From: Phaeosaccion multiseriatum
Lineage: Eukaryota > Protista > Ochrophyta, other classes
Reading direction: 5' to 3'
Assembly: GCA_965112735.1 (NCBI GenBank)
Contig: OZ218963.1
Location: 2,356,001-2,420,000, forward strand
DNA length: 64,000 nt
Part shown: piece by piece, positions 2,312 through 46,705 of the stretch
How the letters are laid out: each line of letters starts with the position of its first letter
How positions within the stretch are numbered: position 1 is the stretch's first letter
Notes under the pieces: model-generated
What the model saw: the letters and a program-made list of their open reading frames with translations, nothing else
What the model was told of the DNA's origin: nothing
Database searches by the model: none
Program-made: the position numbers and the translations under genes

Positions 2312-3137
2312 TGCTGCGATGTCCCTCCCGCACTATGATACGTAAGCTGTTGTGTGTGTCAACTAATATATATTGCCCTTAACAGAACCATAAACGTAGT
2401 ACGTAGAAGAGGCCCAGAGTTTCAGATCCCCAAGTGTGGACGTTATCAGTATTGGGCATCCCACAGACCCCAATAATGATCATATCACAACACCCCCCTT
2501 GGACCTAAACTCACTCTCTCCTAAACAGTCAACACATGTAAGATAGCAAGTAAAACGCATGTAAAACCTCGCTACCTCAGTACCTAATCACTAATCACTA
2601 ACCCAAGCTATCCCAAGACTAACCCAAGCTAAACTAAAACCCAAAACTACTTCAACATCTTCGAAACCAGGTACTTGTGCACCTGTGGAGTCAAAGCCTT
2701 GGTCATGATGTCCCCAAGCTGCTCCTTCGTGTTCAGATACTGCTCTCGTTCCCCTTGACCAGCTGAATGCACCCTTCATCGTCTTCATATAAAACAGTGC
2801 CTGTCCCATCAGCCTCCGAACACAGAAACTCATGTCCTTCACAATGGAAACTCCTTCACTCAGTCTGCTGCCACGCTGCTTGGACTACATGTCCCTCCAG
2901 CAAATGTCAAGTCCCTCAACACTGCTCCGACTGTCCAGGTCAGCAGCCCATTTCACTTCGGCTAACGCCTCCAAATAGAGTCCCCCCTTTCCTTCAAACG
3001 CTTCTCCAAATGTACCCCCGGGTACTCACACAAGCGCTTCTATGCTTCGCCATGCTCAGGCCCCGCCCGGCTTCTTCATAAGCCGAGTCAATTCCTCCTT
3101 GCAAATGCTATGTCGCTCACAACCATGCTAGCGGCCA

Positions 3138-5792
3138 TCACCCACGAACCCACCCGACTATCACACAGTCAGCCTGTTCGTCTTCAATGCCACTTGCCTC
3201 TAGGCGCTTCCACAATTGCTCACAAGTCTTAGCTGGTGACCCATACACATGTCCACCCAAGACTTCATGCCACTCTAACGTAGCACCCATATACCCCTCT
3301 ACAGGAAGACTCAAAATCCAGTCCCCCTCTTGTGTGCACAACTTGCTCACCCTTGGTCCTGCTTCCGCGTTGACCTCTCCCATACAGATCTTGCTCGCAC
3401 CGAACCCTCGTACCACGCTGACCTCTCCCATACTTCCCTGTAGGTACCGCATCCCAGTCCGTCTCCTGGGCGCCTCTGTCGCCCTCCCTGGCTGTCTCAT
3501 ACATCCAATAACGACTGGCCTGCATAGGTTCCAGGTTCTGCTCTGCCTTGCTCTGCTCTGCCTTGCTCTGCTCTGCCCTGATCTGGCTGCTCTGCTCTCT
3601 GTTGTGCTGTACGCTGCCTTCGCTGCACTCTCTGCAGCGCTCTTGCGGCGCTGTCTGCCGCTCTGTCCGACACAATAACGACTGGCCTGCATAGGTTCCA
3701 GGTTCTGCTCTGCCTTGCTCTGCTCTGCCTTGCTCTGCTCTGCCCTGATCTGGCTGCTCTGCTCTCTGTTGTGCTGTACGCTGCCTTCGCTGCACTCTCT
3801 GCAGCGCTCTTGCGGCGCTGTCTGCCGCTCTGTCCGACACACTGCCTGCTGGGGCTCTGCCGGCTGTGGCTCTGCCGGCTGTGGCTCTGCCCTCTGCTGC
3901 TGCTGTGCTGTCTGACTCTTCTCTTGTGTCTCCGCTGGCTCTGCCTGCTGCCGCTCTCGCTGTGCGACTGACTCTGCCTGCCTCTGTTCTCTCTGAGCTG
4001 CCGGCTCTCCCTGCCGCTGCTCTGCTGTTGGACACATCTGTGTCTCTGCTGGCTCTGCCTGCTGTCGCTCTCGCTGTGCGACTGACTCTGCCTGCCTCTG
4101 TTCTCTCTGAGCTGCCGGCTCTCCCTGCCGCTGCTCTGCTGTTGGACACATCTGTGTCTCTGCTGGCTCTGCCTGCTGTCGCTCCCGCTGTGCGGCTGGC
4201 TCTGCCTGCCTCGTCTCTCTCTGAGCTGCCGGCTCTTCCTGCCGCTGCTCTGTTGTCGGACACCTCTGTGTCTCTGCTGGCTCTGCCTGCTGTCGCTCCC
4301 GCTGTGCGGCTGGCTCTGCCTGCCTCGTCTCTCTCTGAGCTGCCGGCTCTTCCTGCCGCTGCTCTGTTGTCGGACACCTCTGTGTCTCTGCTGGCTCTGC
4401 CTGCTGCCGCTCCCGCTGTGCGGCTGGCTCTGCCTGTCTGCTGTCTTTGCCCCTCTCGGGAGTGGGTCCGTCCCTGCACGACGCTGCACATACTCTCCCG
4501 CCCGGCAGCGGAGTGTCCAATGCTACCTGCTGAGCCACGGTAGACTTTCTCGTCGGTGCCACTGCCTCTACGTGCCGGTCTGCTTGCACTACTTCTGTCT
4601 GCTTCTGCGCCAGCTGCTCCGTGCTTTCCCCAATTCTCTCTCTCTCCGTGGGACTCAGGTCAGTCCCCACAAGCCCACGGTTTGCTCCTACCCCTACCGA
4701 GTTTTCTACTCCTGGGTATGTCTGGACGGCCTCTGCTGCCATCGACTCTGTTTGCCCCGGCTCTCGCTGCCGTAGCTCTACGTGCTGCTCCTCAGACAGT
4801 TGCGGCTCTGTCTGCTCAGACTCTGCACGCACTGATTGCTGCTCTGCCTCTTCCGGCTCGGCACGCTCTGGTTGCTGCTCTGCCTCCTCCGGCTCTGCAC
4901 ACGCTAGTTGCTGCTTTGCCTCCTCCGGCTCTGCACGCTCTAGTTGCTGCTCTGCCTCCTCCGGCTCTGCACACGCTAGTTGCTGCTTTGCCTCCTCCGG
5001 CTCTGCACGCTCTAGTTGCTGCTCTGCCTCCTCCGGCTCTGCACACGCTAGTTGCTGCTTTGCCTCCTCCGGCTCTGCACGCTCTAGTTGCTGCTCTGCC
5101 TCCTCCGGCTCTGCACGCTCTAGTTGCTGCTCTGCCTCCTCCGGCTCTGCACGCTCTAGTTGCTGCTCTGCCTCCTCCGGCTCTGCACACGCTAGTTGCT
5201 GCTTTGCCTCTTCCGGCTCTGTACGCAACCCTCTCTCTTCATTAGTAAGGGGCCCTCCCTCACTATCAGGACTGATTCTACGAATATCGACCGACACTTC
5301 CGTTCCACCATCCGTCCTATCTTCTTCTGGCTCCGGCATACCATTTTTCCGTATGCCCAGCCTAAGACTACTAACGCAGCCTTCGATGTGGGATGCACCC
5401 TCATCACCGGGACAGGTATTACGTGTGTCAGCAAACACATCCGTTCCACCATCCGCCCCCAGTACCCTACCATATTGCCTGTCAGACATCTTGGTTCTAC
5501 CAGGGTCACTAGTATTTGTTGCTGCAAGCTGAATACTTGCTATCTGCGCTTCCTCCGATCTTCTCGCTCCGGCCTCGACCGCCCATGAAGCCTTCTCAGA
5601 CCTCCGCCTCGCGAAGTCCTCCCAAGCCGCTACCTTCTTTCCAAAGGCCGCTATTTCACTGCAGTAGGCCGCTATTTCACTACAGTCTTCGACGTTTCCA
5701 TAGTTCTCTACTTCTATATAGCGCTCCCTCACTTTCTTCATGAGAGATTGTGCCTTCTCCAACTCTGTCCAGGCTGCCAATTCCTCTGTCAA
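3138..5792 (-). CDS. Repeat-rich coiled-coil (gag-derived?) ORF of the LTR element; upstream part 5823-6115 separated by a stop
   Basis: 884-aa ORF with 36-bp (EPEEAEQQLERA) and 114-bp tandem units; no recognisable catalytic motif. Confidence 0.5.
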   Translation of the reverse strand: MTEELAAWTELEKAQSLMKKVRERYIEVENYGNVEDCSEIAAYCSEIAAFGKKVAAWEDFARRRSEKASWAVEAGARRSEEAQIASIQLAATNTSDPGRTKMSDRQYGRVLGADGGTDVFADTRNTCPGDEGASHIEGCVSSLRLGIRKNGMPEPEEDRTDGGTEVSVDIRRISPDSEGGPLTNEERGLRTEPEEAKQQLACAEPEEAEQQLERAEPEEAEQQLERAEPEEAEQQLERAEPEEAKQQLACAEPEEAEQQLERAEPEEAKQQLACAEPEEAEQQLERAEPEEAKQQLACAEPEEAEQQPERAEPEEAEQQSVRAESEQTEPQLSEEQHVELRQREPGQTESMAAEAVQTYPGVENSVGVGANRGLVGTDLSPTERERIGESTEQLAQKQTEVVQADRHVEAVAPTRKSTVAQQVALDTPLPGGRVCAASCRDGPTPERGKDSRQAEPAAQRERQQAEPAETQRCPTTEQRQEEPAAQRETRQAEPAAQRERQQAEPAETQRCPTTEQRQEEPAAQRETRQAEPAAQRERQQAEPAETQMCPTAEQRQGEPAAQREQRQAESVAQRERQQAEPAETQMCPTAEQRQGEPAAQREQRQAESVAQRERQQAEPAETQEKSQTAQQQQRAEPQPAEPQPAEPQQAVCRTERQTAPQERCRECSEGSVQHNREQSSQIRAEQSKAEQSKAEQNLEPMQASRYCVGQSGRQRRKSAAESAAKAAYSTTESRAARSGQSRARQSRARQSRTWNLCRPVVIGCMRQPGRATEAPRRRTGMRYLQGSMGEVSVVRGFGASKICMGEVNAEAGPRVSKLCTQEGDWILSLPVEGYMGATLEWHEVLGGHVYGSPAKTCEQLWKRLEASGIEDEQADCVIVGWVRG

Positions 5793-6115
5793 TAGCTCCA
5801 GTTCTTTCGCGTAAGCAGCTAACTACCGCTCCGATTCGCTTTCATTGTCAGGAACGGCTGTCTCTCCAACTGTTCCTTCTTTCAGCTCGGAAGAGAAGGT
5901 TTGCACCTTTGACTTGTAGCTCAAACAAATCAGAGAGCTGCTGCTACCGCTGCTGCCCCCCGTGCTGCCTCCCCCTCCCGCTATGGTGCCGCCACTGCTT
6001 GACGCACCTCCGGGGCCTCCTGCCCCTGACACAACAGAGCTTCCCGCTGCTGATCCTGTGTCTAACTTGGCCAATAAGTTGGTCAGGTTTGCTATCTGCT
6101 GCTGCTGCTGCTGCA

Positions 6116-6497
6116 TGTGCTAAGTTCAGATAACGTCTTATTATCCTGAACCTCTAGTATTGCGCTAGTAATTTTGTACTAGCGCAATACTAGAGGTTCA
6201 GGATAATAAGACGTTATCTGAACTTAGCACAAAAATATTTCCGAGGTTGGGGGTTCAGATCCCTTGTGTGACCAGAAAGTTAGTCGTCCCGAGGGGAGGA
6301 TAACTCGTTAGTCGTCCCGAGGGGAGGATAACGGATATGACCCCGCAACCCGGGGAAATATTTTTGTGCTAAGTTCAGATAACGTCTTATTATCCTGAAC
6401 CTCTAGTATTGCGCTAGTAAATAATTAAAATAAAATTTTATTTACTAGCGCAATACTAGAGGTTCAGGATAATAAGACGTTATCTGAACTTAGCACA
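6116..6497. mobile_element. Hairpin-ended element family C, complete H-S-H
   Basis: Two near-perfect palindromes TGTGCTAAGTTCAG...CTGAACTTAGCACA with AT-rich loops; TSD TGCA (6112-6115/6498-6501). Confidence 0.92.
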
Positions 6498-6921
6498 TGC
6501 ATTAGCATAAACATGTCTTGTTGAGAAGGTGGATCCCCTCCACCTACTCCTGGACTAGAGATATCAGGGAACGCATCGTCCCCATCCCCGTCCTGCTCTG
6601 TCCCGCTAGCATGCCCCCCAGGCATGGGTACCGCAAGACAGCACTACGTCTCCTGTTGATTTACACTCACTTCGTTTTCTGCCGCTGAACAATTAAATTG
6701 CGGAACCAGCTAGCTGTAAAGATGTTCGCGACAATTGTCGTGTTGCGATGTCCCTCCCGCACTATGATACGTAAGCTGTTGTGTGTGTCAACTAATATAT
6801 ATTGCCCTTAACAGAACCATAAACGTAGTACGTAGAAGAGGCCCAGAGTTTCAGATCCCCAAGTGTGGACGTTATCAGTATTGGGCATCCCACAGACCCC
6901 AATAATGATCATATCACAACA

Positions 6922-8014: not shown

Positions 8015-8216
8015 TGTTGGAAGGCCTCAGAGTGAGAAGGACCATAAGTCAATGGTCGGTGTGTCCTATATTACGTAGATTCTGAGTGGAGGAGGACGTC
8101 AGAACGGTGATCTTGGTATAAGGAGAGCCTAGCCTAGCAGGGCTTGCAAACGGGTTCCATCCCGTATAATATATCAAGGGTTACCACTTGTCTAAGCGGC
8201 TTAGGTCGCTTTTACA
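8015..8216 (+). mobile_element. 5' LTR of a gypsy-type element
   Basis: TGTTGGAAGG...TTTTACA; TATAA at ~8117; AAACGGGTT (8148-8156) complementary to AACCCGTTT (8216-8224). Confidence 0.65.
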
Positions 8217-8483
8217 ACCCGTTTTGACACAATTGCTGATGAGGATATCCGAAAAACAAAGGAAGGAGAGGCAGGACAGGACAGGACCGGGAAGGCAGGA
8301 GGCACACAGGCCATCTAGGACCAGACTCGGAGGCGGTAGGCAGTACCAGCACACGGCCTACAGGGGACAGTGGCTGCCACAGCGGTGGGCAGAGGATAGG
8401 CAGCAGGCAGGGAGCGAACAGCAGAAGCGGCACAGCAGTGTGGGGGTGACGTGAGGGGCGCTCGGTCGGCCACAGCGGCACCC

Positions 8484-11410: not shown

Positions 11411-11491
11411 TGTTAGAAGTCGTACTTTTGGTACCTCCCGGTCTGAATTCAGAGGGCAGGTATCAGTCTAGCAAAAGTACGACTTCTAACA
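11411..11491. mobile_element. Solo family-A hairpin
   Basis: 81-bp TGTTAG...CTAACA; TSD GGAG (inside a GGA-rich tract, so weak evidence on its own). Confidence 0.8.
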
Positions 11492-11615: not shown

Positions 11616-13324
11616 TGTAAAGAGTCTCGTTGCTCTCCACCTAGGATAGGAGTAGCCGCATGGACAAGGTAATAGCAACCCCAAAGCCAGCCTGGCAGCC
11701 AGCCTTGTCTCTATTAGCTTTATCCGTGAGCCATCCTAAACGACCAACCTGCTGGGAGGTGAGTGAGAAACGGGCCACGCACCGTTTCTCACCGTATTTG
11801 CCTGGGCCTGGGCCATTGACATAATACTGACTTTCAACATCCCCGTCAGCCATCCCTGCACTTCTAACATCCCCCTGAACTAAACTATTGCGTGTCCCCA
11901 CGCAACTCAAAGCGGGTTCGCCTACTAAAGCTCGACTTGTAGCAAAAGCCTCCATGTTGCTTCCAATAAAAACGGATGAGAAATATGCAAAACTCACCCA
12001 GGTGTGTGCGACCGCTCCTCCAACACACACCCTCCTGTATTGGTGAGAAAACCCCACGACTCAAACTCACCCACACAGGCTCACGGATGAGAACATCCCA
12101 TGACTCAAACTCACCCGCGCAATTCTCTATCTCCACTCCTACTCGCCACCAGCGTTGCCAAAGCCTCGTTGCGCACCACTAATGCTGACTGCTCAAGTGT
12201 TTACTGGTGTGCCTACAAGGCACCCAGACAGTCCCTAAAGCAGCCTTGCGAGTATCCTTCTCTGTCTCCCGCCAAGCTCCGTGCAACAGCAACAGCCGCG
12301 CTGCTGCCACACTCGAAAGCCGTGCCCGCTGTAGGGCACCGCTCTCGGCAATTCTCTATCTCCACGGCCCACCAAGCTCCAGCAGCAATTTCCGTGCAAC
12401 AGCAACATCCGTGCTGCTGCCACACTCGAAAGCCATGCCCGCTGACTAAGGCACCACTCCCGGCAATTCTCTATCTCCACGGCCCACCAAGCTCCAGCAG
12501 CAATTTCCGTGCAACAGCAACATCCGTGCTGCTGCCACACTCGAAAGCCGTGCCCGCTGTAAGGCACCGCTCCCGGCAATTCTCTATCTCCACGGCCCAC
12601 CAAGCTCCAGCAGCAATTTCCGTGTAACAGCAACATCCGTGCTGCTGCCACACTCGAAAGCCATGCCCGCTGTAAGGCACCGCTCCCGGCAATTCTCTAT
12701 CTCCACGGCCCACCAAGCTCCAGCAGCAATTTCCGTGTAACAGCAACATCCGTGCTGCTGCCACACTCGAAAGCCGTGCCCGCTGTAAGGCACCGCTCCC
12801 GGCAATTCTCTATCTCCACGGCCCACCAAGCTCCAGCAGCAATTTCCGTGTAACAGCAACATCCGTGCTGCTGCCACACTCGAAAGCCGTGCCCGCTGTA
12901 AGGCACCGCTCCCGGCAATTCTCCATCTCCACTGCCCACCAAGCTCCAGCAGCAATTTCCGTGTAACAGCAACATCCGTACTGCTGCCACACTCGAAAGC
13001 CATGCCCGCTGTAAGGCACCGCTCCCGGCAAACTCAAAGCTACCGAGCTGCTGCCTGAGCCTCTTGGCCAAGGTCAGCTGCCTTCGGGATTCTTTGGGGT
13101 TGTGAAGAGTCACGTTGCTCTCCACCTAGGATAGGAGTAGCCGCATGGACAAGGTAATAGCAACCCCAAAGCCAGCCTGGCAGCCAGCCTTGTCTCTATT
13201 AGCTTTATCCGTGAGCCATCCTAAACGACCAACCTGCTGGGAGGTGAGTGAGAAACGGGCCACGCACCGTTTCTCACCGTATTTGCCTGGGCCTGGGCCA
13301 TTGACATAATACTGACTTTCAACA
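11616..13324 (-). mobile_element. Non-coding TRIM family 1 (LTRs 11616-11839 and 13101-13324)
   Basis: 224-bp direct repeats TG...CA; PPT GGGGA; no coding domains; flanks do not match. Confidence 0.9.
12280..13031. repeat. ~113-bp tandem repeat (~6.5 copies) inside the TRIM
   Basis: Unit ...CAATTCTCTATCTCCACGGCCCACCAAGCTCCAGCAGC... recurs at 12350, 12465, 12578 etc.; fewer copies at 17833-18245. Confidence 0.9.
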
Positions 13325-13582: not shown

Positions 13583-13676
13583 TAGAAGACGTCCTCTTTC
13601 TAGACTGTCAGCTATCCACTGAAATTTCACGTAGGGTAGGGTACCTAACAGTGTAGCAAAAGGACGTCTTCTAACA
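13583..13676. mobile_element. Hairpin family E (A/B-related), left end clipped
   Basis: TAGAAGACGTCCT...AAAAGGACGTCTTCTAACA with CTATCCACTGAAATTTCAC loop. Confidence 0.7.
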
Positions 13677-15161
13677 ACGTGGGGTACCTCGACGTGTTTG
13701 AGCCGCTTGGTCCAGTTGACGCTTCAGCAGCGCTGTGGAGAGGATCGGCTGATACATGCTATCCAAAGGGAACCAGGTGGCCCCACCTTCAGCCACAGCG
13801 AGAAGCGGGGAAATTCGCTCGTAAGCGTATTTTCCACCTGAGACGTTAATGAGCTTGAGGCCACAAGACAATAGGCCCGCCATATGTCCGAATGAGCTGG
13901 CACCGGTGGCCAGTACATCGGCTCTACTCATACACTTGATAGCGTCGCCTTCATTCCCATTTGCGTGGAGCACCACTTGAATGTCCGAGCTGTTGCTGCT
14001 CTGCGCTACATAGTAGCTTCGGAGCCTGTCGCCGAAGCCGCAAATACCGCCTTTCTCCCTCTCTGGGCACTCCTCTGGAAGCTGTGCTTCGTGACAAGCG
14101 CGAACCTCATCAGGGCGAATGGAAAGATGGGGAAAGTCCTTAAACGTATTTGTCTCCATGTCCGGGCAAGTCTCAGTTTCGGTAAAGACGTGAAACGAAG
14201 GTGGTGAATATCCCAGCTCGGATATCACCGACGCAATATGCTGCATAAGGTCATGCATGCTTCCCCAAAGCCTCATGCTACCAGTTCCCTTGTCCCCCAT
14301 TCGAAGATGAAACGCAACAGCCAAGGCGGACCCCGTCTCGTCATAGCCACACTCAGGTACCGTGTCGTACCCAGCTCGAGGGAAAACGTTGAAAGCCTCG
14401 CGTATGCGGCGTAGGCCTCTGCCGTACGACGAAGGCAATGGATGTTCCGGGAGCTGCCGCCACGGCTGCCCTTGTAGAAGTATCGCCGCGGCATGATTAG
14501 AATAGAGACTAAGCCGAGTCACGGTGTCATTTTTGTGTTGCTCGAGCATCTCCAGAATCTTAGCATCGCTACTTTCGCTACCTGGGGAAATCACAGAAGG
14601 TGGGGGCCCATCTCCCCCCAGAGGGATGTCGCTGGTGTAGTTGCCCAGATTGAGAAATTGCGCAACGTCAAGATCAGCGCATCGATACTTGTCGGCAAGC
14701 TCGACAAGGCCATTTGTTGTTGCTTTGTGACAATAAAGAGTGCCGTTTCGCCATGCTCCGCGGTGGCTCGGCAAGGCATCCCATGCGGCGAGGTCGAGCG
14801 AGGAATCCGTTGCAGGCGTCTCCTTCATGGGGGGAGCTTCCATCGTACAACCCAGGCCTTCTGCCACCAAAAAAGCCCACCACACTCTCATGACCTCTCC
14901 GCCTAAGCCATCGAAGTTTACTTGAACGCGAACGGTGCAAGGAGTTTGGCGGAGCTGCCATGCATTCATCAGATTCACGTTGGAGCCATTAAACCAGATC
15001 GGATCAAGACTGCTAGCCCACGCCTCCACTGCGCGGACGATTTCTTGTTGGTCCCACTCTAGCCCTCCAGTCGAATCTGCTGCTAGTGCTCCTCTTCCGG
15101 CCGAGAACAGCAGCAAAAGGCAAAGCGCTAAGCAGAGGACAGAGACAAGGTGAGAATTCAT
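13671..15161 (-). CDS. Secretory-pathway protein with fucosyltransferase-like (GT11/GT23/GT68-type GT-B) C-terminal domain
   Basis: Signal peptide; AVAFHLRMGD, FHVFTE and DAIKCMSRADVLATGASSFGHMAGLL resemble the HxRxxD / xxDD / SSF motifs of alpha-1,2-, alpha-1,6- and O-fucosyltransferases; stop codon supplied by hairpin E. Confidence 0.65.
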   Translation of the reverse strand: MNSHLVSVLCLALCLLLLFSAGRGALAADSTGGLEWDQQEIVRAVEAWASSLDPIWFNGSNVNLMNAWQLRQTPCTVRVQVNFDGLGGEVMRVWWAFLVAEGLGCTMEAPPMKETPATDSSLDLAAWDALPSHRGAWRNGTLYCHKATTNGLVELADKYRCADLDVAQFLNLGNYTSDIPLGGDGPPPSVISPGSESSDAKILEMLEQHKNDTVTRLSLYSNHAAAILLQGQPWRQLPEHPLPSSYGRGLRRIREAFNVFPRAGYDTVPECGYDETGSALAVAFHLRMGDKGTGSMRLWGSMHDLMQHIASVISELGYSPPSFHVFTETETCPDMETNTFKDFPHLSIRPDEVRACHEAQLPEECPEREKGGICGFGDRLRSYYVAQSSNSSDIQVVLHANGNEGDAIKCMSRADVLATGASSFGHMAGLLSCGLKLINVSGGKYAYERISPLLAVAEGGATWFPLDSMYQPILSTALLKRQLDQAAQTRRGTPRC

Positions 15162-15729
15162 TCCTATGATACTAGATAATCCAGACGTCGCATTTCCCTG
15201 TCTTAGGAACTGAAATGTTCTCCCCAGTGTAAATTAGTTATATCAAACCGCGAAAAGTGGTGTGCTAAAGCTACGAACAGTACAGACAGCTCAGGGGTTT
15301 GGGCTAATATATGCCGCGTCTGTTGCGACGTCGGTGCCCGTATTAATAGTCTCTTTACTGCCCGCTGCCTCAAGCGTGATCTCTTGTCTTGTACTTGCTT
15401 GGCAGTCTACAGGTCCCTTCGTTGCCACCTGGCACTTTCGGGACTCTCAGGTACGTTGAGGCGGGAACTCTCTTTAGGACCGTTCTTATTTCTATAACCC
15501 CAGAACGTCCACCCGGAAACCCCAGGCGAGATGGTCCCTCATCACCTTATCACAGTGGGTTTTAGAGGGCATCGACTTTCGGGCAAAATAATTTTAAGAC
15601 CCACTACAAGAAGAGCGTGGTAGGGGAGGTTCTCCCATAACTGCGCTGGGATGGTATTTCTTGTGGAGCCGTATGCTTTACTTAATACAGAGACAGACAC
15701 TGGAGGGAGGAAGAACCCAAGGCGCGTGT

Positions 15730-17334
15730 TGTGGAGGTATGCTCACAAATGTCGTCAGTTCATAGTTTCAGTTTCTTCGTTCAGTTTCAGTTTCCTTTTA
15801 GTTCTTTCCATCTCCTAAAATATTACTTCATCTCTCGTTGTTACGATATAAGGCATCCCAATATGCCTTCAGTATTATCCAAACGTTACGATATAAGGCA
15901 TCCCAATATGCCTTCAGTATTATCCAAACGTTTGGATAATACTGAAGGCATATTGGGATGCCTTATATCGTAACACTCGTCCTTTCGTTTTCTCACGAGT
16001 GCTCCACCTCTGGTGGATAGCGACTGACCTCCTGCTATGTGCAGGTAGGGTCTATTGCTATTGGTAGTCATCCTTTCAGTGCACGACTCCACAATAACTA
16101 GTTATTACCGGATAGTACATTTCATACACTTTCCAATTTCAGCGGCGACCAATGTCCGTCTCGCCACTACAACACCCGGTGGTAGGCTGTACACCACCCG
16201 CGGTAGGCTCTTCCAGCATCGAGGTCTACATCCAGCCTTTTTTGGCCGATCCCAGTCAGAGAGCGGCCGCAGTGGATCGATGCCAGCAGCAGATTGTGCA
16301 GCTCTTTTCGGCGCTGGATAAATGTGGGCAGCTCGCCGTGGTCTACAACGAGAGTGCGGACGAATGGGTAGAAGGCACAGCTTCTGCAATCAGCGGAGGC
16401 CTCGCTGCCGGCCTCAAGCCCCAACATGTTTTCCTACAAGCGGCGTACTCCACCTTTGGACCTCATTCTTCACACCTTCCAGGGCCCTCTCTTGGTGCCC
16501 AAGATCAGCTATGCCATCACGGATAACGACATGACCAAGTTGGTTACCGTGGGCCGCGCCACCCTGAAGGAGCTCGGCATTAATATCCAAGAGGCCCTTG
16601 GTAAGGCAGCAGCGACGCAGCACATCAAAGACGGCGCCACCGGCCCTCCGCGTCAGGCGTCGGAACGTACTGTCACCTTTCTCCGTGACCGTTACTCTCC
16701 TCACTTCTAATCTTCTTCTGTTTCCCTCGGACTCTTTCCTATACCTTCTGAGTACCAATGTGCCCTGAAATAATTCTCCCTACCCTCTGGTGTTTCTAGA
16801 CTGTTTGTGAGGCCGCTTTTTCCCTCCCCCTTGTGTGAGGCAGCTGTTCCCTCCATCTGTTCTGTTCCCAAGTCGGTGTAGCTAGGGCTAATTCTCTCTA
16901 CTCTCTGGTGTTTCTGGACTGTTTGTGTGGCCGCTTTTTCCCTCCCCCTTGTGTGAGGCAGCTTTTCCCTCCATCTGTTCTGTTCCCAAGTCGGTGTAGC
17001 CAGTCTGTGTGGATTTCCCTCTTTTCCTTACTTCCTTTCCTCCTATTTGTGTTCATCTCTTTCTCTTTCCTTATCATGTCTGCGTATGCACACATGCTTT
17101 CAAAGGGGGGACTGTGGAGGTATGCTCACAAATGTCGTCAGTTCATAGTTTCAGTTTCTTCGTTCAGTTTCAGTTTCCTTTTAGTTCTTTCCATCTCCTA
17201 AAATATTACTTCATCTCTCGTCCTTTCGTTTTCTCACGAGTGCTCCACCTCTGGTGGATAGCGACTGACCTCCTGCTATGTGCAGGTAGGGTCTATTGCT
17301 ATTGGTAGTCATCCTTTCAGTGCACGACTCCACA
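15730..17334 (+). mobile_element. Deleted gypsy derivative (TRIM-like), LTRs 15730-16093 and 17113-17334
   Basis: 222-bp LTRs TGTGGAG...CTCCACA; PPT AAAGGGGGGAC; TSD GTGT; residual protease tail (VGRATLKELGINI). Confidence 0.9.
15839..15975. mobile_element. Family-D hairpin (left arm duplicated) in a 5' LTR
   Basis: TGTTACGATATAAGG...CCTTATATCGTAACA; 5-bp TSD CTCGT; empty site in the sister LTR at ~17217. Confidence 0.92.
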
Positions 17335-18378
17335 GTGTGCACATTTATTACATTTAATTCTAATTCAAATAACTACTTCGAAGTAATTACATATGGAAAT
17401 GAAAATGGCGCTGGCCTGCTGGGCCCAGGTTAGGGCCAGACCCACCCCGCCGTGATGGCAGCTGGAGGGGTGAGGCAGCATCACCCCACGGTTCGTGCTC
17501 AAAAATGTTAGAAGTGCAGAGATGGCTGACGGGGATGTTGAAAGTCAGTATTATGTCAATGGCCCAGGCCCAGGCAAATACGGTGAGAAACGGTGCGTGG
17601 CCCGTTTCTCACTCACCTCCCAGCAGGTTGGTCGTTTAGGATGGCTCACGGATAAAGCTAATAGAGACAAGGCTGGCTGCCAGGTTGGCTTTGGGGTTGC
17701 TATTACCTTATCCATGCGGCTACTCCTATCCTAGGTGGAGAGCAACGTGACTCTTTACAACAACCCCAAAGAATCCCGAAGGCAGCTGACCTTGGCCAAG
17801 AGGCTCAGGCAGCAGCTCGGTAGCTTTGAGTTTGCCGGGAGCGGTGCCTTACAGCGGGCACGGCTTTCGAGTGTGGCAGCAGCACGGATGTTGCTGTTAC
17901 ACGGAAATTGCTGCTGGAGCTTGGTGGGCCGTGGAGATAGAGAATTGCCGGGAGCAGTGCCTCACAGCGGGCACGGCTTTCGAGTGTGGCAGCAGCACGG
18001 GTGTTGCTGTGGCACGGAAATTGCTGCTGGAGCTTGGTGGGCGGAGGAGACAGAGAACTGCCGGGAGTGGTGCCTTAGACAGCGGGCATGGCTTTCGAGT
18101 GTGGCAGCAGCACGGATGTTGCTGTTACACGGAAATTGCTGCTGGAGCTTGGTGGGCCGTGGAGATAGAGAATTGCCGGGAGTGGTGCCTTAGACAGCGG
18201 GCACGGCTTTCGAGTGTGGCAGCAGCGCGGCTGTTGCTGTTGCACGGAGCTTGGCGGGAGACAGAGAAGGATACTCGCAAGGCTGCTTTAGGGACTGTCT
18301 GGGTGCCTTGTAGGCACACCAGTAAACACTTGAGCAGTCAGCATTAGTGGTGCGCAACGAGGCTTTGGCAACGCTGGT

Positions 18379-20923
18379 TGTAAGGCATCCTTTTGCTAGG
18401 CTGGCAGCTATCCACTGAATATTCACGGGGGTAGCTGCCAGCCTAGCAAAAGGATGCCTACTTACATGCCTGTCAGTTAAGGTCGATCCTTCCCCCCCCT
18501 CCGAAAACTCCTCCGAAAACCTTGGGGGGGTAACTACCTAGGGGAAAGGCGCACTTTTATAGTGTCGACCTGTCCGTGGATCGATTTTTTGGGTCCGTGG
18601 AGCGATTTTTTTTGGTCCGTGGAGCGACTTTTTTCCTATAATTTTCTGCTCACCCCCCCCCTTCCCCCTCCTCTAAGAAGGTCAACGCTGCTTAAATAAC
18701 CACAACTGCTACATTCCAGCAGTAGTAATGGCTTAGTGAAGGATTTCTCATGGCAGGAACGTGGCAGGGCTGGTAGTAGCAGCAGCAGTCAAGCAAAGAG
18801 AGGAACAAATCAAACATTTCAAACCATGACACCACCAGCAGCAGCAGAGACAAATGGAGGAGAATGAAGAGGCCTTAGTGGGGCAGCACAAAAGGATGGA
18901 ACAGCACCACCTGTGTGACAGTCCTGAAGAGATTTCTGGCGCACAGGGCTCTGAGAATACGAGTGGAAAGGCCGCAGGAGCGCACGACGACGATGACAGT
19001 GATTGGGACGACGAGACTTGGACGCAAGCCGTTGCTCTGGCAGATGAAGCCGCTGCGGCGGTACAACCAGCGACCGCTTCGAAACCGGGCACTCAAGCGG
19101 CAGTGGAGACTGAGCTTGCGACAATTGCCGCAGCACAGGAGGAGACGCGGTGAAACAATTGCAGACAGCTATGCAGAGATTGAATATCGAGAAGGCGGCT
19201 GTAGAAGATGCATACGAAGTTCGAGGAGGACGAGGCCGGCCCCTGAAGGGAATAAGCGAGAAGCTGCGGTTGAATGGTGCAGCTATGAAAGGGATTGATG
19301 AGAATTTGCTTCTCCCAGCGGAGAAGGAAGAGAAGCGAGAAAGAGGGCTGTGACTTGTCTTCGAGCGCAGACAGGGTAGATGGTGCAAGTGGTGACCACT
19401 TCGTAGGGTTTTCTTCGCCGCCCCTTGGTCGCACGTCTAAGCGGTACGTTCTCAATGATCTCCTCTTCCTTCTTGATGCCTGGCTGCTCTTGTCCACGCC
19501 CCCCGCCCACTCTGGGCCGCCCTTTCTGAACATACCTTAACACACTTATTACCCCTGTTGTTCTCGCCCCCTTTTTACATCTTTTTTTGTGCTAGCAGGG
19601 GTGAGAAAGACGAGGATGAGGACGAGGAGGATGGAAATACGGGCGACAAGGGGGGGCGGTGGTAGTGGGGGAGGGTTTGGGAAGAATAGACCACCAGCGC
19701 AGACTGAGTTCACTCGAGGCGGCAAGGGATCCAAAGGAAGGGTTGCCTACCTGGCAAACTCCCTACTACAGGGCCTCGACGCCAAGCCGCCAGTCTGAAG
19801 TGGGAGGGCATGCCCAACGTGACGTGTTTGTCTGGCCCCCCCACCTCTTCCACAACCTTGGAGAGGACCACCAGCAGCCTCTTTGCGCATGGGATGCATC
19901 GTCAGAGTGTGTACAAGCTTATGGGTGGACGTCGCCGCAGCGGGCTGTGTCTGTCACCAGCCTCGAGCAGGAGGAGGAGGAGGAGGAGGAGGAGGGGAGG
20001 GAGGGAAGAGGGGGAGGAGGAGGAGGAGGAGGACCATCATCATCAGCAGCAAGAGAATCACAAGGGGGAGGAGGGGGGGGGGGGGGAAGGAGGAGGAGAA
20101 TCAGCTGTGGGAGGAGGAGGAGGAGGAGGAGGAGGAGGAGGAGTAGGAGTAGGAGTAGCAGGTGGTGCTGGTGCTGGAGGAGACGGGGGGGGGGGGCGGG
20201 GGAGGAGGAGGAAGAGTTGCAGGTGCTGCTGAGGCTGGAGAAGGAGGGGGGGGAAGGAGGAGGACGAGGAGGGGGAGGAGCAGCAGCAGCAGCAGCCGCC
20301 ACAGCACTGTGGCCGGCACGGAGGATCAGGGGCAGGAGCATCTGTAGCGCCTGCAGAGGCTGCTGCTGCAGAGGGTGGTGTCGCTTTCGGGGGAGGTGAG
20401 AGTACCCACGAGAGGCAGCTATGGAAGAGGAGGGAGGCCGCGAAAAGGAGAAGAAGAGAGGCAGGCGAGGAGGGAAAGGAGAAGGCGAGGCTCCAGAAAA
20501 AGGCAGCGCGGGAAAGGGAAAGATTACAGCAGGATAAGGACCGGCCAGAGGGTGATTTACCCGTTTCCGTGTGCATAGTATTGTATATACAACACTTAGG
20601 TCTTCTACAGTTGCCTCTACTCTGGGGAGGAGAAGGAGAGAGAGGAGTGTCGCCGCAGGCGGGGAAAATTTCTAATTCCTTTTTTTTCTCCTTTTTTGGG
20701 CCGGCGGTCGACGGTATAAAAGTGCGCCGATTTCTCCCACACCGAGCCTGTTACCTCGAATTTCAGTGTCATGCCCAACTTTCGCCCTCGGAAATTTTCT
20801 CACCATCCTCAGAATCGAACCCCGTCTGGGCATGTAAGAAGGCATCCTTTTGCTAGGATGGCAGCTATCCACTGAATATTCACGGGGGTAGCTGCCAGCC
20901 TAGCAAAAGGATGCCTTCTTACA
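18379..20923. mobile_element. Hairpin-ended element family B (H-S-H) enlarged by a nested TIR element
   Basis: H 18379-18466 and 20833-20923; TSD TGGT; empty site at ~12145. Confidence 0.9.
18548..20728. mobile_element. Non-autonomous TIR DNA element (~2.2 kb)
   Basis: TIR GGCGCACTTTTATAnnGTCGACC at both ends; splits the B spacer; no clean TSD; only low-complexity ORFs. Confidence 0.65.
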
Positions 20924-21459
20924 TGGTGGCGAGTAGGAGTGGAGATAGAGAATTGCGCGGGTGAGTTTGAGTCATGGGATGTTCTCATCCGTGAGCCTGT
21001 GTGGGTGAGTTTGAGTCGTGGGGTTTTCTCACCAATACAGGAGGGTGTGTGTTGGAGGAGCGGTCGCACACACCTGGGTGAGTTTTGCATATTTCTCATC
21101 CGTTTTTATTGGAAGCAACATGGAGGCTTCTGCTACAAGTCGAGCTTTAGTAGGCGAACCCGCTTTGAGTTGCGTGGGGACACGCAATAGTTTAGTTCAG
21201 GGGGATGTTAGAAGTGCAGAGATGGCTGACGGGGATGTTGAAAGTCAGTATTATGTCAATGGCCCAGGCCCAGGCAAATACGGTGAGAAACGGTGCGTGG
21301 CCCGTTTCTCACTCACCTCCCAGCAGGTTGGTCGTTTAGAATGGCTCACGGATAAAGCTAATAGAGACAAGGCTGGCTGCCAGGCTGGCTTTGGGGTTGC
21401 TGTTACCTTGTCCATGCGGCTACTCCTATCCTAGGTGGAGAGCAACGTGACTCTTTACA

Positions 21460-24435: not shown

Positions 24436-27400
24436 ATGCCGCAAAGGACGCTATGGGCGACTGTACTGATGCTGTTCTTGTCATTGGGGATGCTGTGGAG
24501 TAGCGGTCGGTGCGAGGGTGCGGTAGTTCCCGGAGGAGGGGCACTGCCATCGGCCGAGGAGGAAGGAAGGCACCATTCCGACGACAAAGGAGCTGGTGTT
24601 CCTGCTGGTGGGGATGCTACGGCTGCTGATATCACTGGTTTAGCCTTGTTCTCGAGGAAGCTGGAGGAGCCGCAAAGTGTACCAAGAGGCGGCAGCAGGT
24701 GAGTAAGGAGTTAGGAAGACGCCATGGAGGAGAGATCAGAGCGTTGGCCTGCCTTTGTTCAAGTGGTGTCCACGGGACCGAGGGGCGCTGATCTTCGGCT
24801 CCTCCGAAGCAGCCAAGGCTGGTGATTTGAGGATATCACGGCAGAACTTACCACTGCCTGGCCACCAAGATGAGAACGCACAGTTATGCTAGGGAAGAAG
24901 GGGGGGGGGGGGGGGTAGTGCGCCGGATACAGGAGTGCTGATCGGCGTGTGTTGGGGCACCTCTCCTCATCTTGCACACTCTCTGATGGACCTTTCTCTT
25001 CCCCTTCCACATCGGCCACGCACCCACATTTGGTATGCGTCGCCACATCGGGATACACCATGCACCAATTACCCTGGTCCTGATGGTGCCGCAGCGCGTT
25101 GGCTGCACATGGCAGCAATCCTGGGAGCCAGGGTGACAACCTGGGGAGTTCTCTCCACCGCCATAACATCATCGCGACTAACAAGCGCACGGATGATGGC
25201 AGTGGGCCGTTCACTCCCCTTGCTGCCCCGACAGATTTAGATATTTTTATCCACATGGAGGACTACCACCCGCAGCACCGGCAAGCCCACACTTTCCTTT
25301 ACATAGACTCGCAATTCGGAGAGGAGGATGCGACGAGTGGGGGGGGGGGCAGCGCAGACACCGACCCTGCGATTCCCGCTTTCCTGACTGCAGCGTACAG
25401 CATCATGATGAACGAGGAAATATGCGACAGGGATGTGATATTTCTCGTGAATGAGGAATTCGCTAGCGGGGCGAAGGAAGCCATGGATATCCTCATCCCC
25501 GCTGCCAATGAGAATCGCCGCCGGCTCAATGAAAGCCACCAAAACTGCTTTGGGGGCTTTGTTGTGAGGCTGAAAGTACCATTTTTCCCCCAAAAAGCCG
25601 GCCCTCCCCTTTGTCCCGACACGAGAGATCATTTCTTCTACATCAGTATGCAGAAGCTTCTTGTGACAGGCATGACAGAGTATGAAATGGTCGCGTTCCA
25701 AGACCTAGACTTGATCGTTCGACCAACGAAAGAGGGGGCGGATGTTCTACGTCTGGACGACGGCATTGACTTCAGGGCACAATACGGTAACCTCTCTCCA
25801 GTCAATGCCGGACTTTGGACCCTTCGCCCCAGCCACGAGGCCTTCGCGGACTTTCTCAGTGCCCTTAGAACCGGATTTTCAGAGGAGCTGGGATGGAATA
25901 ACGTGGGCCCACTGCCCAGGTGGGGCGAGGACAGTATTTTCATGGCGGGTGATGTTCATAATCTTCCCCTCGAGATGAGGCCGTACATGAACCTTTCTGT
26001 AGGAGAAACGATGCCATGGGTGCATTGGGGAGCGTGCGGAGACCAGGGGCTTCTTGCTGCCCTCTTCATCATGAACGCCCGTGCCTCTGAGGGTCATCGC
26101 AAGCGCGTCGCGTTCATCGAAGGCCCCCGCGACCCCGGGAGGATGAATTCGTTTACTCACTTCACAGGACTTCTCAAGCCCTGGAATATTCAGGCAGAGT
26201 GGTATATTCTACTACTCGAACGGAAGGGGCGACGCATGGAACTTCTCGAACTTTGGTGAGGAATTGGAATTGGGGCGAGATGTCTCCTCTACCCTCCCCT
26301 TCCGTCCTTTTCTTCTTCCTTTTTTCCCTCTCTTCCTCCCTCCCTTTTTCTTTGCTCCCTCCTTTTTTATTTCTGCCAAAGGGCGCTGCCCCATGAAGAC
26401 ACCCCCCCCCTCCCCTTTCTCCCCCAATCAGTCCGTCCCCTATCATCTCGACATGGCTTCCCCCCATGTTCATCATAACAGCCTACCACCACCCACTCAC
26501 TCACTGACAGCCGCCTGGCCAGCCTAACCCTCTTCTTCGCTGTCGAAGGTACAACTCCTTCTCCCAGCTCCTTCGCGACGTCCCTGGCGTACTTGAGCTA
26601 CCAGATGTCCAAGCAATTCAGCGTATCGTGTACGTCGATGAAGATGTGTCCGTTTCGGCCGCAGTACCGCCACCTACCAACGTAGCCTTTCCCTCCCGCT
26701 TTCGCACCGACGAAAACTGCTACGGAGATCGGTTCAGACTGTTTGCCTGTAAGCCGTCCTTTTTTATGCTGGGGGTGCAAAAGAGTGGGACCACCGACAT
26801 ATATAATCGCCTGGTGAAACACCCCCATATTGTCAACACGAAGACGAAGGAGCCCGGGTTTTGGTCTTACCATGCGCACCGTGGTGCTATAGAAGAGTTT
26901 CGTACCTACCTTGCCAACTTTGACCCGCTGGTGGAGACGCTGAACAGTTTCCAAATCAAGGCTGACAAGGCGGCTAGGCTCGGACAACCCCCACCAGAGG
27001 GTGTAAAAGGAATGGGGATCCACGCCAATATGATATCAGGCGATGGGTCCGCCTCTACACTCTACATGTACCGCCCTTTCTACGGACCGCGGGATGTCGA
27101 CGGTTTTCTAACCCCACAGCTCATCCACGGAAATCTACCCAATGCCAAGTACATTGCCGTCTTTCGCCACCCCGCGGATCGCCTTCTGTCGGAATTTCAC
27201 TTTTACTGGGTAAGTGTAAATCCCTGTAACGCAAACCTATTATGTGTTCTTAAATTATCCACAGCTCAGCTCATAGGGGGGGACTCTGGCCTGTTGCTGT
27301 CATTGAAAGTGAGCTACGAGGAACGGCGGGGTGAGGGACTCTCGTTCATGCGTGCACTCTCCTTCCGTACTCCCCATGTTTGCTTTGTCCTTCCCTCTCT

Positions 27401-28207
27401 CCCTCTTCACCGCCCTCGGTTCGCCAACCAAAACGTCCCACCATGGCCTCTCTTGCATGCCTGCTCTGTCCTTCCCCTCTCGCTCCCTCTTCACCCCTCT
27501 GTTCGGCAACTCCCCAGATCGCTGAACTTTATATGTGGGACGAGGAAGACCCCAAAGGGGCTATCGAAACGCGAGCGCACAAGCGATGCACTGACCCCCT
27601 GACACGATCCATCGAACACAAAGTTGGGCGGGCTGAAGAAAGGGCGGCCCAACCGAAGGGAGTAGTGGCCTCAGCACGAAAATCAGGACGAAAAGACGGA
27701 GCAGGAGTAGGGGGGTACGTTGGAGGGCCTGATGACCTACTTTTTGATGCTCTTGTGGACCTCAAAATTGAACGCTGGAAGAAATGTGAAGACGCCCGTG
27801 GAGCTGAGTATTGTGCTTTCTTGGACGAGTTTTCGGATAATCCAGGTCAGCTCTGTCCAGCCCTGGGTCTCGGTCTGGGCATGTATAGCATCTTTCTGGC
27901 CAAGTGGTTTCAAGCGGTGCCTCGGGAGCAGGTGTTGGTCCTTCGCTCTGAGGATTTCAAGGGTGACTTACGCGGGAGCATGTCCAAGCTGTTCGGCTTT
28001 CTCAGTGTACCACAGCCATCGGAAATAGAGTGGAAAGATATTTTGGTTAACGAAGTGGCAAATGCCCACTCCTACAGCCAAAGTACGGGGGTAAACGCGT
28101 CAATGATGGATGAGACCCGATCAAAGCTGCTCGAGTTTTACCACCCGTTCAATGTGCAACTGAATAACTTGCTGGGGGAGGAAGACTTCACCGCGCTTTG
28201 GGTGTAG
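24436..28207 (+). CDS. Bifunctional GT8 glycosyltransferase-carbohydrate sulfotransferase (CHST15-like); exons 24436-24698, 25095-26255, 26549-27209, 27518-28207 (924 aa)
   Basis: Signal/TM peptide; GT8 motifs QKLLVTGMTEYEMVAFQDLD, VNAGLWTLRPS, GDQGLL, HFTGLLKPW; PAPS-binding motifs GVQKSGTTDIY and RHPADRLLSEF; all three GT-AG introns keep frame (2775 nt). The first intron is the least certain. Confidence 0.8.
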
Positions 28208-31280: not shown

Positions 31281-32520
31281 ATGGCGGATATTGCAAAGCC
31301 AAAGGTTGCCCTCATAACCGGCATCACGGGCCAGGATGGCTCCTACCTCGCGGAGCTGCTGCTGGAGAAAGGATACGTGGTGCATGGCATCATTCGCAGG
31401 TCGTCTTCATTCAACACGTCGCGCATCGACCACCTCTACCAGGACCGCCACATCAAGGATGCCAAGCTCTTCCTGCACTACGGTGACCTGACGGACTCCA
31501 CCAACCTCGTGCACATCATCTACGAGACGCAGCCGGACGAGATCTACAACCTTGGCGCCATGTCTCATGTGAAGGTCGGTGAAGCAGAGGGGAAGTTTTG
31601 GAGAGAACATGGAAATTGGAAGAGGGGAGGGGAGCACTCTTCGTTGTTATGCGTATGCATGCTCTCTTTAACTTGCTATCGAAACAGAACTTGAGAACTC
31701 TTATCATCTCGCGACGATGTTCTTTCGTTTCAAGGTGTCCTTTGAGATGTCCGAGTACACAGCAGAGGCCGACGGCGTTGGCTGCCTGCGCCTCCTCAAC
31801 GCCATGCGCTCGGTGGGCCTGGAGAAGAAGTGCCGCTTCTACCAAGCCTCCACCTCGGAGCTGTACGGAAAGGTGCAGGAGATCCCCCAGAAGGAGACTA
31901 CGCCCTTCTACCCTCGCTCCCCCTATGGAGTGGCCAAGCAGTACGCCTTTTGGATGCTCATCAACTACCGAGAGGCCTACGGCATGCACCTCACCAACGG
32001 TATTCTCTTCAACCACGAGAGCCCCCGCCGCGGTCCCACTTTCGTGACGAGGAAGATTACTCGGGCAGTGTCTCGCATCCACCGCGGCCAGCAGGACTGT
32101 CTCTTCCTGGGCAACCTCGACGCCAAGCGAGACTGGGGACACGCTCGCGACTACGTCAAGGGCATGTGGCTCATGGTGCAGAGGGACACGCCGGAGGACT
32201 ACGTGCTCGCCACGGGAGAGTGCCACGAGGTGCGCGAGTTCGTCGACAAGGCCTTCGCCTACGCGGGCATTACCATCGTGTGGGAGGGCAAGGGGGTGGA
32301 CGAGAAAGGCTACAACGCCACCGATGTCGAGAAGAAGAACCCTCTCGTGCAAGTGGACCCGGAGTACTTCAGGCCCACGGAGGTGGAGCTGCTGGTGGGC
32401 GACCCTTCCAAGGCCAAGCGCGAGTTGGGGTGGGAGCCCGAGGTGACTTTCCAAGAGCTCGTCAACGACATGATGAAATCAGATCTCGAGCTTGTGGACA
32501 AGGGCGACAAGCACTCTTGA
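31281..32520 (+). CDS. GMD: GDP-mannose 4,6-dehydratase; exons 31281-31574 and 31735-32520 (359 aa)
   Basis: [70 protein letters not shown]; one phase-0 GT-AG intron. Confidence 0.98.
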
Positions 32521-37290: not shown

Positions 37291-38145
37291 TAAAAAAAAT
37301 AAAAAAAAACCTGCAACTACCCCACCACAGTGGTGACGGACCATCAGTCCTTGTTGTGGTTGGCTGGGCACGAGGATACCAATTCCAAGCTGTTCAGATG
37401 GTACGAGCGGCTCTCTACGCACCACTTGCAGTTTGTGCATCGTCCCGGGAAGCAAATGGTGGTGCCTGACTGCCTCTCTCGCAACGCACTTCCGGTGCAG
37501 GAGTGGGCGACGCATGCGGGGGTAGACTTGGCCATGGTTGCGTGCGAGCGGCCGTCGCCCTTGCACACCTGGTGTGCTTGGATGGGGGTGCAGTTGAACC
37601 TGGTGGAAGGAAGGGGAGAAGGGAGCTTTCATTGGGAGGAGCCAACGGAGGGAGCACTGCTTCGCTTTCTCGCAGTGGCGCAACAGCTGCAGGGCGAAGC
37701 CGACACACGCCTGCCTATTCCTGTGCCTGCTGTGACGGCCCAGCAACAGCAGCAACGGTGCCACCACCAGCAGCAGAGCGGAGTGGAGGCCCTACAAGCC
37801 TGGCAGACTGCAGAGGTGGACTTGTCTGCGACGCAGTCTGTGGAAAGTCGTGCTTAGACCTCCACGAAACGGACTAGACACACAGATAAGGTAGCAGCAC
37901 CCCAAAGCTAGCCTGACAGCCGGCCTTGTATCTATTAGCTTATCTATGCACTGTCCTAAACGACCACCTACAGGAGGATAGTGAGAAACGGGCACCGTTT
38001 CTCACTGCGTTGCCTAGGCCTGGGCCACTGACATACGACTGACTTTCCACATCCCCGTCAGCCATCCCTGCACTTCTAACACTCCCCTGACAAGACTCCG
38101 GCACACTTCATCGCGTCAATCTCCTGCTGCCACTGGCGCTCCTCC

Positions 38146-39153: not shown

Positions 39154-39876
39154 CTTCCCTCTTGCTGCGCCCCTGCAGCTGCTCCCTCCGAGCGTGCCTA
39201 ATTATGCCTGATATCCGTGCCTGCTGCTGCTGCTGCTGCCTCTGCAGCTGCTGCGGTATCCAACACCTGCTGCTGCGCCCCCTGCCTCTCCAGCCAAGCC
39301 TGCTGTATCTCCTGCCGCTAACCTCTAAATCAGCGGTCCCCTCTGATTAAGTATAGCGGATACCCGTGCCTCCTGCTGCTGCCCCTGCAGCTGCTGTATC
39401 CAATCCCTTGCTGCTGCCCCTGCAGCTGCGCGCCAATCCTTCCGTGCCTCCTGCTGCTGCCCCTGCAGCTGCTCCTTGCAATATCCCTAGCTACCTCTTG
39501 CTGCCGATCCACGGTAGCGCTGCTGTGCCACTCTTTCAAAGCCAAGCAATAAATTCTCCCCTGTGGTAGATTGTCCTGCCTGAGGGTTTCCGGTCACACA
39601 TTCTGGGGTATAATAAGAATGTCGGTTTCCTAGGCACGCCCCGAGGGGGTTCAACGGCTCTAGCGTTTCACCCTCCTCTTTGTGGGCACAAGCTTTGCAT
39701 CAGCAAGTAGTAGAGATATATTATCAATACGGACACTGACGCCCCACCATAGGCGCAGCATATACTTAGTCCAAACCCCTTAACGTTTCTACTATCTTAG
39801 CTTAGCACAGAACTAGTTCTCGCTTTAGAAAAGCTTTGGAGAAGGATTTTCTCGGACCGATTGGAGGAGCGGCATC

Positions 39877-45721: not shown

Positions 45722-46705
45722 ACACACTTACTTCCCAGTCGGCTCGAACTGTCGCTTGGGGGTAGTGTGGTAGATTGTCCTGCCTGAGGGTTTCCGGTCA
45801 CACATTCTGGGGTATAATAAGAATGTCGGTTTCCTAGGCACGCCCCGAGGGGGATCAACGGCTCTGGCGTTTCACCCTCCTCTTTGTGGGCACAAGCTTT
45901 GCATCAGCAAGTAGTAGAGATATATTATCAATACGGACACTGACGCCCCACCATAGGCGCAGCATATACTTAGTCCAAACCCCTTAACGTTTCTACTATC
46001 TTAGCTTAGCACATCCCACAAATAAATTCTCCCACCGGTTCCCAAGCAAAGCCAAGCCAAGCAAAGCTAATTAAGCTAAACGCCCCTGACGGAGCAAGCT
46101 GTGGCGTGTCCGTGCCTTGGACACTAACCAAAAACGTCCACGTGCTAGTCTAGCGCACGATGAACTCAAAGTCTCCCTCTGCTGAGCCTATTGGTCAAGT
46201 GCCAAACTGTCTTCGAGCTTTGGGGTTGTGGAAAGTCGTGCTTAGACCTCCACGAAACGGACTAGACACACAGATAAGGTAGCAGCACCCCAAAGCTAGC
46301 CTGACAGCCGGCCTTGTATCTATTAGCTTATCTATGCACTGTCCTAAACGACCACCTACAGGAGGATAGTGAGAAACGGGCACCGTTTCTCACTGCGTTG
46401 CCTAGGCCTGGGCCACTGACATACGACTGACTTTCCACATCCCCGTCAGCCATCCCTGCACTTCTAACACTCCCCTGACAAGACTGTTGCGTGTCCCCAC
46501 GCAACTCAAGCGTTTTCACCTACTGAAGCTACACTGTAGCAAACCCCTTTATGCTGCTTCCAAAAAAACCGGATGAGAAATATGCAAAACTCACCCACCA
46601 GTGTGTGACGTGGCACTCCACAGGTCACCCTGCCACACACCTGCCACGGCAGGGTGAGAAAGCCCAAGGCCTCAAACTAACCCTCCGTGGCTGCGCACGG
46701 CTGCG

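Follow-up and report, generated by a model that had tools for sequence, protein, structure and literature searches.

We analysed a 64,000-nucleotide stretch of Phaeosaccion multiseriatum DNA (hereafter the window) in which four LTR retrotransposons carry a perfect palindrome at the border of the 5' LTR (Table 1). Two of the elements, E1 and E4, are copia elements, E3 is a chromodomain gypsy element, and E2 is non-autonomous and gypsy-like. Host genes are found between the repeats (31672-32520, 25084-28207, and 13671-15233). They include a GDP-mannose 4,6-dehydratase gene, whose best named relatives are from brown, yellow-green, and other stramenopile algae and make an ochrophyte host probable, frames that appear glycosyltransferase-like and sulfotransferase-like by eye, and a 520-aa ORF that lacks a Pfam match; the gene at 25084 has no Pfam match.

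Table 1. Features of the palindrome-bearing elements E1-E4 and candidate primer sites of the F3 family (window coordinates)
Element	Feature	Position	Strand	Basis or remark
E1	12-bp perfect palindrome, +1 to +12 after 5' LTR	6729-6740	minus	
E1	Second perfect palindrome, 10 bp, +25 to +34	6707-6716	minus	Identical in E4
E1	5' LTR, 181 bp, TG..CA	6741-6921	minus	99.5% to 2312-2492
E1	3' LTR	2312-2492	minus	Purine tract before it
E4	12-bp perfect palindrome, +1 to +12 after 5' LTR	62584-62595	minus	
E4	Second perfect palindrome, 10 bp, +23 to +32	62564-62573	minus	
E4	5' LTR, 3' part	62596-62719	minus	Interrupted at 62720 by second E3 copy; 33-bp deletion relative to 3' LTR
E4	gag-pol frames: zinc knuckle and copia-type RT	57768-62480	minus	Pfam (RVT_2, E 5e-41)
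E4	3' LTR, 174 bp	57483-57656	minus	
E2	14-bp perfect palindrome, including last base of 5' LTR	16093-16106	plus	
E2	5' LTR, hairpin element inserted at 15839-15975	15730-16093	plus	100% to 17113-17334 on either side of the insertion
E2	3' LTR, 222 bp	17113-17334	plus	4-bp target duplication GTGT
E3	12-bp perfect palindrome, including last base of 5' LTR	39809-39820	plus	
E3	5' LTR, 248 bp	39562-39809	plus	99.2% to 45766-46013
E3	pol: RVT_1, RNase H, integrase, chromodomain	40187-45720	plus	Pfam; hairpin elements interrupt at 44678-45324
E3	3' LTR	45766-46013	plus	4-bp target duplication TCCC, judged from empty site 48438-48441
E3, second copy	3' LTR (62720-62967) and integrase end, inserted in E4 5' LTR	62720-64000	minus	
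F3b	Non-palindromic site after LTR	48640-48650	minus	11-nt complement inside LTR (Tf1-type)
F3a	Non-palindromic site	13092-13100	minus	9-nt complement inside LTR
F3d	Non-palindromic site	8217-8224	plus	8-nt complement at 8148-8155

E4 (57483-62719, minus strand) has the RT, the TG..CA LTRs, and the purine tract of a Ty1/copia element. Its RT protein has only distant relatives, with a best identity of 38% among the 120 homologues listed. The element is not one open frame, as the frame changes near 61720-61790 and a stop is present at 59439. The copia element E1 (2312-6921, minus strand) is decayed and has RT/RNase H pieces at 2653-3094, which are 35-63% identical to the RT/RNase H of E4. Because a target duplication is absent, E1 may be recombinant. 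A third copia family, identified by an RVT_2 match, is present at 55527-57163; the end motif of its 3' LTR is related to the U5 end of E1 and E4, and its 5' junction is deleted.

On the gypsy side, E3 matches RVT_1, RT_RNaseH, and Integrase_H2C2 above the Pfam cut-off, and Chromo below it (E 2e-4, scored on the second copy). The RT-RNase H-integrase order followed by a C-terminal chromodomain is that of a Ty3/gypsy chromovirus, with a weak Chromo hit. A protein search with the E3 pol returned five matches, the best at 29% identity, and the frame of gag differs from that of pol near 40200 (40187-40210), with no single open frame. E2 (15730-17334, plus strand) has an interior of ∼1 kb with short ORFs and no recognisable protein, and tblastn reveals no match between it and the other elements of the window. 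We call it gypsy-like because its 4-bp target duplication and TGTGG..CACA ends resemble those of E3. Nothing in the LTR and leader of E2 can be aligned to those of E3 beyond an 8-nt core, AACTAGTT. The original prediction, that palindromes occur in both gypsy and copia elements, is therefore upheld by the Pfam-confirmed E4 and E3, whereas E2 can be described only as gypsy-like.

The window also contains abundant small elements whose terminal repeats are near-perfect palindromes of ∼90 bp with TG..CA ends and 4-bp target duplications. These hairpin elements (54175-54519, 54528-54880, 50384-50857, 44678-45324, 49031-49684, 6116-6497, 11411-11491, 56800-56910, and 15839-15975) take the form of TRIM-like units, solo hairpins, and head-to-head doubles. 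At their ends they match the LTR ends of the window (9 nt of the E3 U5 end, 9 nt of the E4 LTR start, and 10 nt of a gypsy LTR at 53445), and for this reason they were probably moved by LTR integrases; possibly, they derive from folded-back strong-stop DNA. Between hairpin elements, and upstream of gypsy integrase-chromodomain sequence at 50620-53406, is an ORF with a 3'-5' exonuclease domain (49665-50426; DNA_pol_A_exo1, E 4e-21), which may be a host gene or an additional retrotransposon domain.

Comparison of the window with itself shows that all four predicted palindromes are present and perfect, that each adjoins the CA end of a 5' LTR, and that each of these LTRs has a second copy downstream with a purine tract before it. 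The copia palindromes begin at +1, and those of E2 and E3 begin with the final A of the LTR (16093 and 39809). The placement immediately after the 5' LTR thus holds for all four insofar as they sit at the LTR border, but two of them include an LTR base. The strand also requires correction for the copia elements, which read on the minus strand, so that their 5' LTRs are to the right of the palindromes. The chance that a palindrome of at least 12 bp begins at -1, 0, or +1 is ∼1.1e-3 per junction. Palindromes of this size number 32 across the whole window against ∼17 expected, many of them from fold-back repeats, and the 3' LTR ends, taken as a control, have none (0/6; best 8). Since E1 and E4 are homologous at the site and E2 and E3 have the 8-nt core in common, these are two or three independent cases rather than four. 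The palindrome feature is real and non-random.

The palindromes could have a role outside priming, either as DNA dyad sites for a dimeric host protein or as neutral palindromes perfected by template switching, with priming accomplished by other means. The window is indeed rich in perfect fold-back DNA and has an incidental 12-bp palindrome beside another TG..CA end (49684-49695), which we discounted as a fifth site, since it overlaps the target duplication of that end. Template switching can make palindromes perfect without selection, and both copia cores fit the E-box pattern CANNTG. Neither version, however, explains the fixed -1/+1 register at 5' LTRs of unrelated superfamilies (∼1e-3 each by chance) or the absence of a primer site, and we regard both as quite improbable.

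The recognised primers of LTR elements are the whole tRNA, the half tRNA, and the Tf1-type self-primer, according to PMC6317226. As predicted, TGG is absent from the first 8 nt after the LTR at every junction listed (0/11), the four elements included. The LTRs of E1-E4 contain no Tf1-type complement above chance level, the best being 4-5 nt, which 571-1862 of 2000 shuffles reach. The identical search in the subfamilies of a third gypsy family, F3, recovered complements of 8, 9, and 11 nt (reached by 17, 7, and 2 of 2000 shuffles, respectively), which indicates that the search works as a test. The absence of TGG from E1-E4 corroborates the claim that they have no ordinary tRNA-3'-end primer site.

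The F3 family has LTRs of 202-224 bp and is found at 8015-8224, 11616-13324, 17536-21459, 37839-38051, and 46227-48863; some copies form tandem LTR-interior-LTR arrays. All of the F3 complements end 60-62 nt ahead of the LTR end, and the letters change on both sides between subfamilies. The complement in F3d is 31 nt past a TATA-like box, and the LTR start of this copy (8015) is inferred, there being no second copy within the window. One F3a copy (6963) has a mismatch and a best complement of 5 nt, and the F3 junctions at 17759 and 29328 were left out of the complement results. From its sequence, F3 is likely a Tf1-type self-primer, and the palindrome is hence not universal in this genome.

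A host RNA, such as a tRNA fragment or small RNA whose 3' end is self-complementary by chance or by evolution, might also serve as the primer. Half-tRNA priming is known in several copia lineages, and the sites of Osser, Bryco, and Bianca, which use it, likewise do not start with TGG (PMC6317226). No tRNA and no Rfam match is found within the window. Against 490 distinct viral and prokaryotic tRNAs, a non-host set, the best Watson-Crick matches at the required position are 8, 9, 7, and 8 nt for E1, E4, E2, and E3, respectively, so that, unlike in half-tRNA priming, no matching tRNA segment is present in this set. When G-U pairs are allowed, single tRNAs of the same non-host set reach 10, 9, 13, and 12 nt in the same order, and the 12-13 nt obtained with E2 and E3 favor a host primer. 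So does the finding that 9/490 of these non-host tRNAs contain a perfect palindrome of at least 12 nt, which shows that a working assumption of ours, that tRNAs cannot hold 12-nt palindromes, was wrong. Nevertheless, four different sites would require at least three different palindromic primers, and the copia sites differ at two positions that are both still symmetric. The Watson-Crick result with non-host tRNAs weakens the case for a host RNA primer, which we consider improbable.

The two copia elements permit a direct comparison. Their LTRs can be aligned over the last 14 nt only, and from the U5 end into the leader there is a homologous block of 52 columns with four substitutions and two single-base gaps, inside which both palindromes lie. 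Two of the four substitutions constitute a compensating central AT/GC change in the first palindrome. Compensatory changes had been proposed for both pairs of elements; they are found in the copia pair, where the central AT of one corresponds to GC in the other within homologous sequence, but they cannot be claimed for the gypsy-side pair, which is not alignable beyond the 8-nt core. Further in, the copia pair also share the second perfect palindrome, 10 bp long and the same in E1 and E4.

We propose that the palindromes, which occupy the primer-binding position in copia and gypsy elements with intact ends, are tRNA-independent primer sites that operate via RNA-RNA pairing, a reading to which we assign a probability of about one half. 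Two RNAs in one particle would pair antiparallel through the palindrome (12-14 bp), and the RNase H of the element would, by analogy with the RNA duplex of Tf1, nick one RNA just 3' of the palindrome. The new 3'-OH would then face the LTR border of the partner, and its extension into the U5-R of the partner would give minus-strand strong-stop DNA, with the un-nicked partner RNA templating the remainder of synthesis. The second 10-bp palindrome of the copia pair would probably aid dimer formation. The site would be primer and primer-binding site at once, as a palindrome is complementary to itself. In Tf1, the primer is set free when RNase H cleaves the RNA duplex between bases 11 and 12 (PMC7175516); the palindromic dimer would share this geometry, as the base after the palindrome faces the LTR border of the other RNA. 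That the LTRs of E1 and E4 have diverged except for the last 14 nt, and yet the 52-column block with both palindromes has been kept, counts in favor of this model.

Intermolecular pairing and fold-back had both been suggested originally, and the predicted energetics favor the former, with -13.2 to -21.7 kcal/mol for the dimer duplex versus 0 to -2.9 kcal/mol for fold-back. In a fold-back mechanism, the RNA would be cut past the palindrome and its end would form a tiny hairpin that primes on its own molecule. A 4-bp stem with a 4-nt loop that ends at the LTR border is predicted in E1 and E4 (-2.9 kcal/mol), consistent with such a mechanism, but E2 and E3 have no predicted hairpin (0 kcal/mol). 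Moreover, a hairpin would leave the central bases in its loop, where symmetry is unnecessary, and yet 4/4 sites are symmetric to the centre, which argues for the pairing of two RNAs. The AT/GC change that is compensated between the copia elements falls in this would-be loop, whose symmetry would matter only for pairing with another molecule. We therefore view fold-back as very improbable.

Several observations count against priming by a partner RNA. In the predicted folds of the copia leaders, the first palindrome is partly engaged in a stem with the U5 end, and it is through the second palindrome that the dimer is predicted to form. There is one compensated pair only, and template switching, as noted above, can yield perfect palindromes in the absence of selection. 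Furthermore, the primer would, in this model, retain a long R-U5 tail, and plus-strand synthesis would thus need a stop or a second cut. To our knowledge, no known system shows such a stop or second cut.

The main rival to priming by a partner RNA is that the palindrome is a dimerisation or packaging signal, comparable to the retroviral dimer initiation site or the palindromes of Ty1, and that priming is achieved by other means. Ty1 has palindromic dimer signals. The predicted duplexes are stable, as such a signal demands, and the second 10-bp palindrome in both copia leaders means that symmetric sites have been kept away from the LTR border too. Like these signals, the sites described here are self-complementary 5' leader sequences able to pair two genomic RNAs. 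They differ in that the retroviral dimer site accompanies a tRNA primer-binding site and is located within a hairpin loop (PMC5445492), whereas here the palindrome occupies the position of the primer-binding site itself. Since nothing else adjoins the LTR, the dimer signal would leave the elements with no primer site, and we deem it unlikely, though a contender.

Relatives of the elements were sought in contigs from public sequencing runs, among the records listed; one of these runs may be the source of the window itself. Two runs were left out, X6, which has two low-depth contigs only, and X7, which has no contigs. Record 17 of run X4, a contig of 3961 bp, contains a diverged relative of E3, which over 39730-39823 differs from it in 8 letters and has 4 gaps. 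The match continues across the palindrome and is lost 3 nt past it, with no change in 39809-39823 among the differences listed, which counts for the model. In contrast, a related copia subfamily (one contig each in runs X2 and X4) has the last base of the E4 palindrome changed, which breaks the outermost pair and leaves a 10-bp core; no other palindrome change is among those listed. This counts against priming by a partner, because the 3' end of the primer would use that pair, and would matter little to a dimer signal. As to whether palindromy is kept by other family members, the answer is thus mixed: the diverged gypsy relative keeps it and the related copia elements lose the outermost pair. 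Also counting against the model is an E3-related locus in 4/4 runs, in which only GAACT matches after the LTR before non-palindromic sequence begins; this locus may be a solo LTR, or else a junction that has decayed. At 62720, the loose-end consensuses were mixed (agreement 0.64-0.68), and we rejected them as variants once contigs resolved them.

Relatives of the E3 or E4 pol with flanking DNA were found neither in viral contigs nor in prokaryote genomes. A scan of metagenome contigs with the copia-leader pattern gave 99 loci, 0/99 with a 12-bp palindrome (best 10). We rejected these loci as chance matches, as none has protein or DNA similarity to the window.

The closest precedent is the Conserved Hairpin Site of the fungal GalEa copia elements, reported in 2017 (PMC5445492). 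According to that paper, these elements have no primer-binding site and carry a 9-bp sequence that is palindromic with the last A of the LTR, with a complementary second arm 12-41 bp downstream that matches at 8 of 9 positions; the site was described without a mechanism. E1-E4 likewise have no tRNA primer-binding site and carry a short palindrome at the border of the 5' LTR. The final A of the LTR is included in E2 and E3 as it is in GalEa, while the palindromes of E1 and E4 start at +1. In both cases, families that share a host have in common a conserved block that extends from the end of the LTR into the leader (33-62 bp in GalEa, 52 columns in E1/E4). The palindromes are longer here, 12-14 bp versus 9 bp, though longer GalEa variants may exist, and they occur in gypsy as well as copia elements of an alga rather than a fungus. 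A GalEa-type second arm in E1-E4 matches at best 6, 6, 5, and 5 of 9 positions, which 335-869 of 1000 shuffles reach. The E4 motifs KCRFVV, YVDD, and VRLDA differ from the KSRLVI, QTDD, and CQPEA given for fungal GalEa in PMC5445492, and no named GalEa reference is among the 120 E4 RT homologues listed. In the absence of a second arm and with different RT motifs, E1-E4 are not members of this group, though alike in position and symmetry.

Similar parallels and differences exist with the Tf1/sushi elements, which are tRNA-independent and in which the RNA of the element itself provides, in Tf1, an 11-12-nt duplex at the LTR border (PMC7175516, PMC4600332, and PMC6317226). E3 is, like these elements, a chromodomain gypsy. 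In Tf1, however, the 5' end of the mRNA serves as the primer and the primer-binding site is non-palindromic, whereas the LTRs of E1-E4 have no such complement. Elsewhere, palindromes inside bivalve TRIMs are mentioned without a mechanism in PMC6934838, a Tcn1 element is reported to have no primer-binding site at all in a paper that describes no palindrome (PMC2864245), and a paper on diatom elements (PMC2806351) contains nothing on primer sites. Further reports of palindromic primer sites, beyond the one fungal copia clade, were not found in the open-access literature. What was known is a palindromic site in fungal GalEa; what is new is that both superfamilies have it within a single genome, where a Tf1-type family is also present and none of the visible 5' ends has a tRNA site.

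That a single genome has palindromes in young elements of both copia and gypsy type, and a Tf1-type family besides, suggests that these elements have converged on an additional mode of priming. If this is true, annotation tools that require a tRNA primer-binding site would miss such elements. More tentatively, and with considerable doubt, we suggest that this may be a fourth mode of LTR priming, with one packaged genome serving, via the palindrome, as primer for the other, that it may have arisen independently in copia and gypsy elements, and that the LTR elements of this alga, whose visible 5' ends have either a palindrome or a Tf1-type site, may all do without tRNA priming, as if the host restricts tRNA primers.
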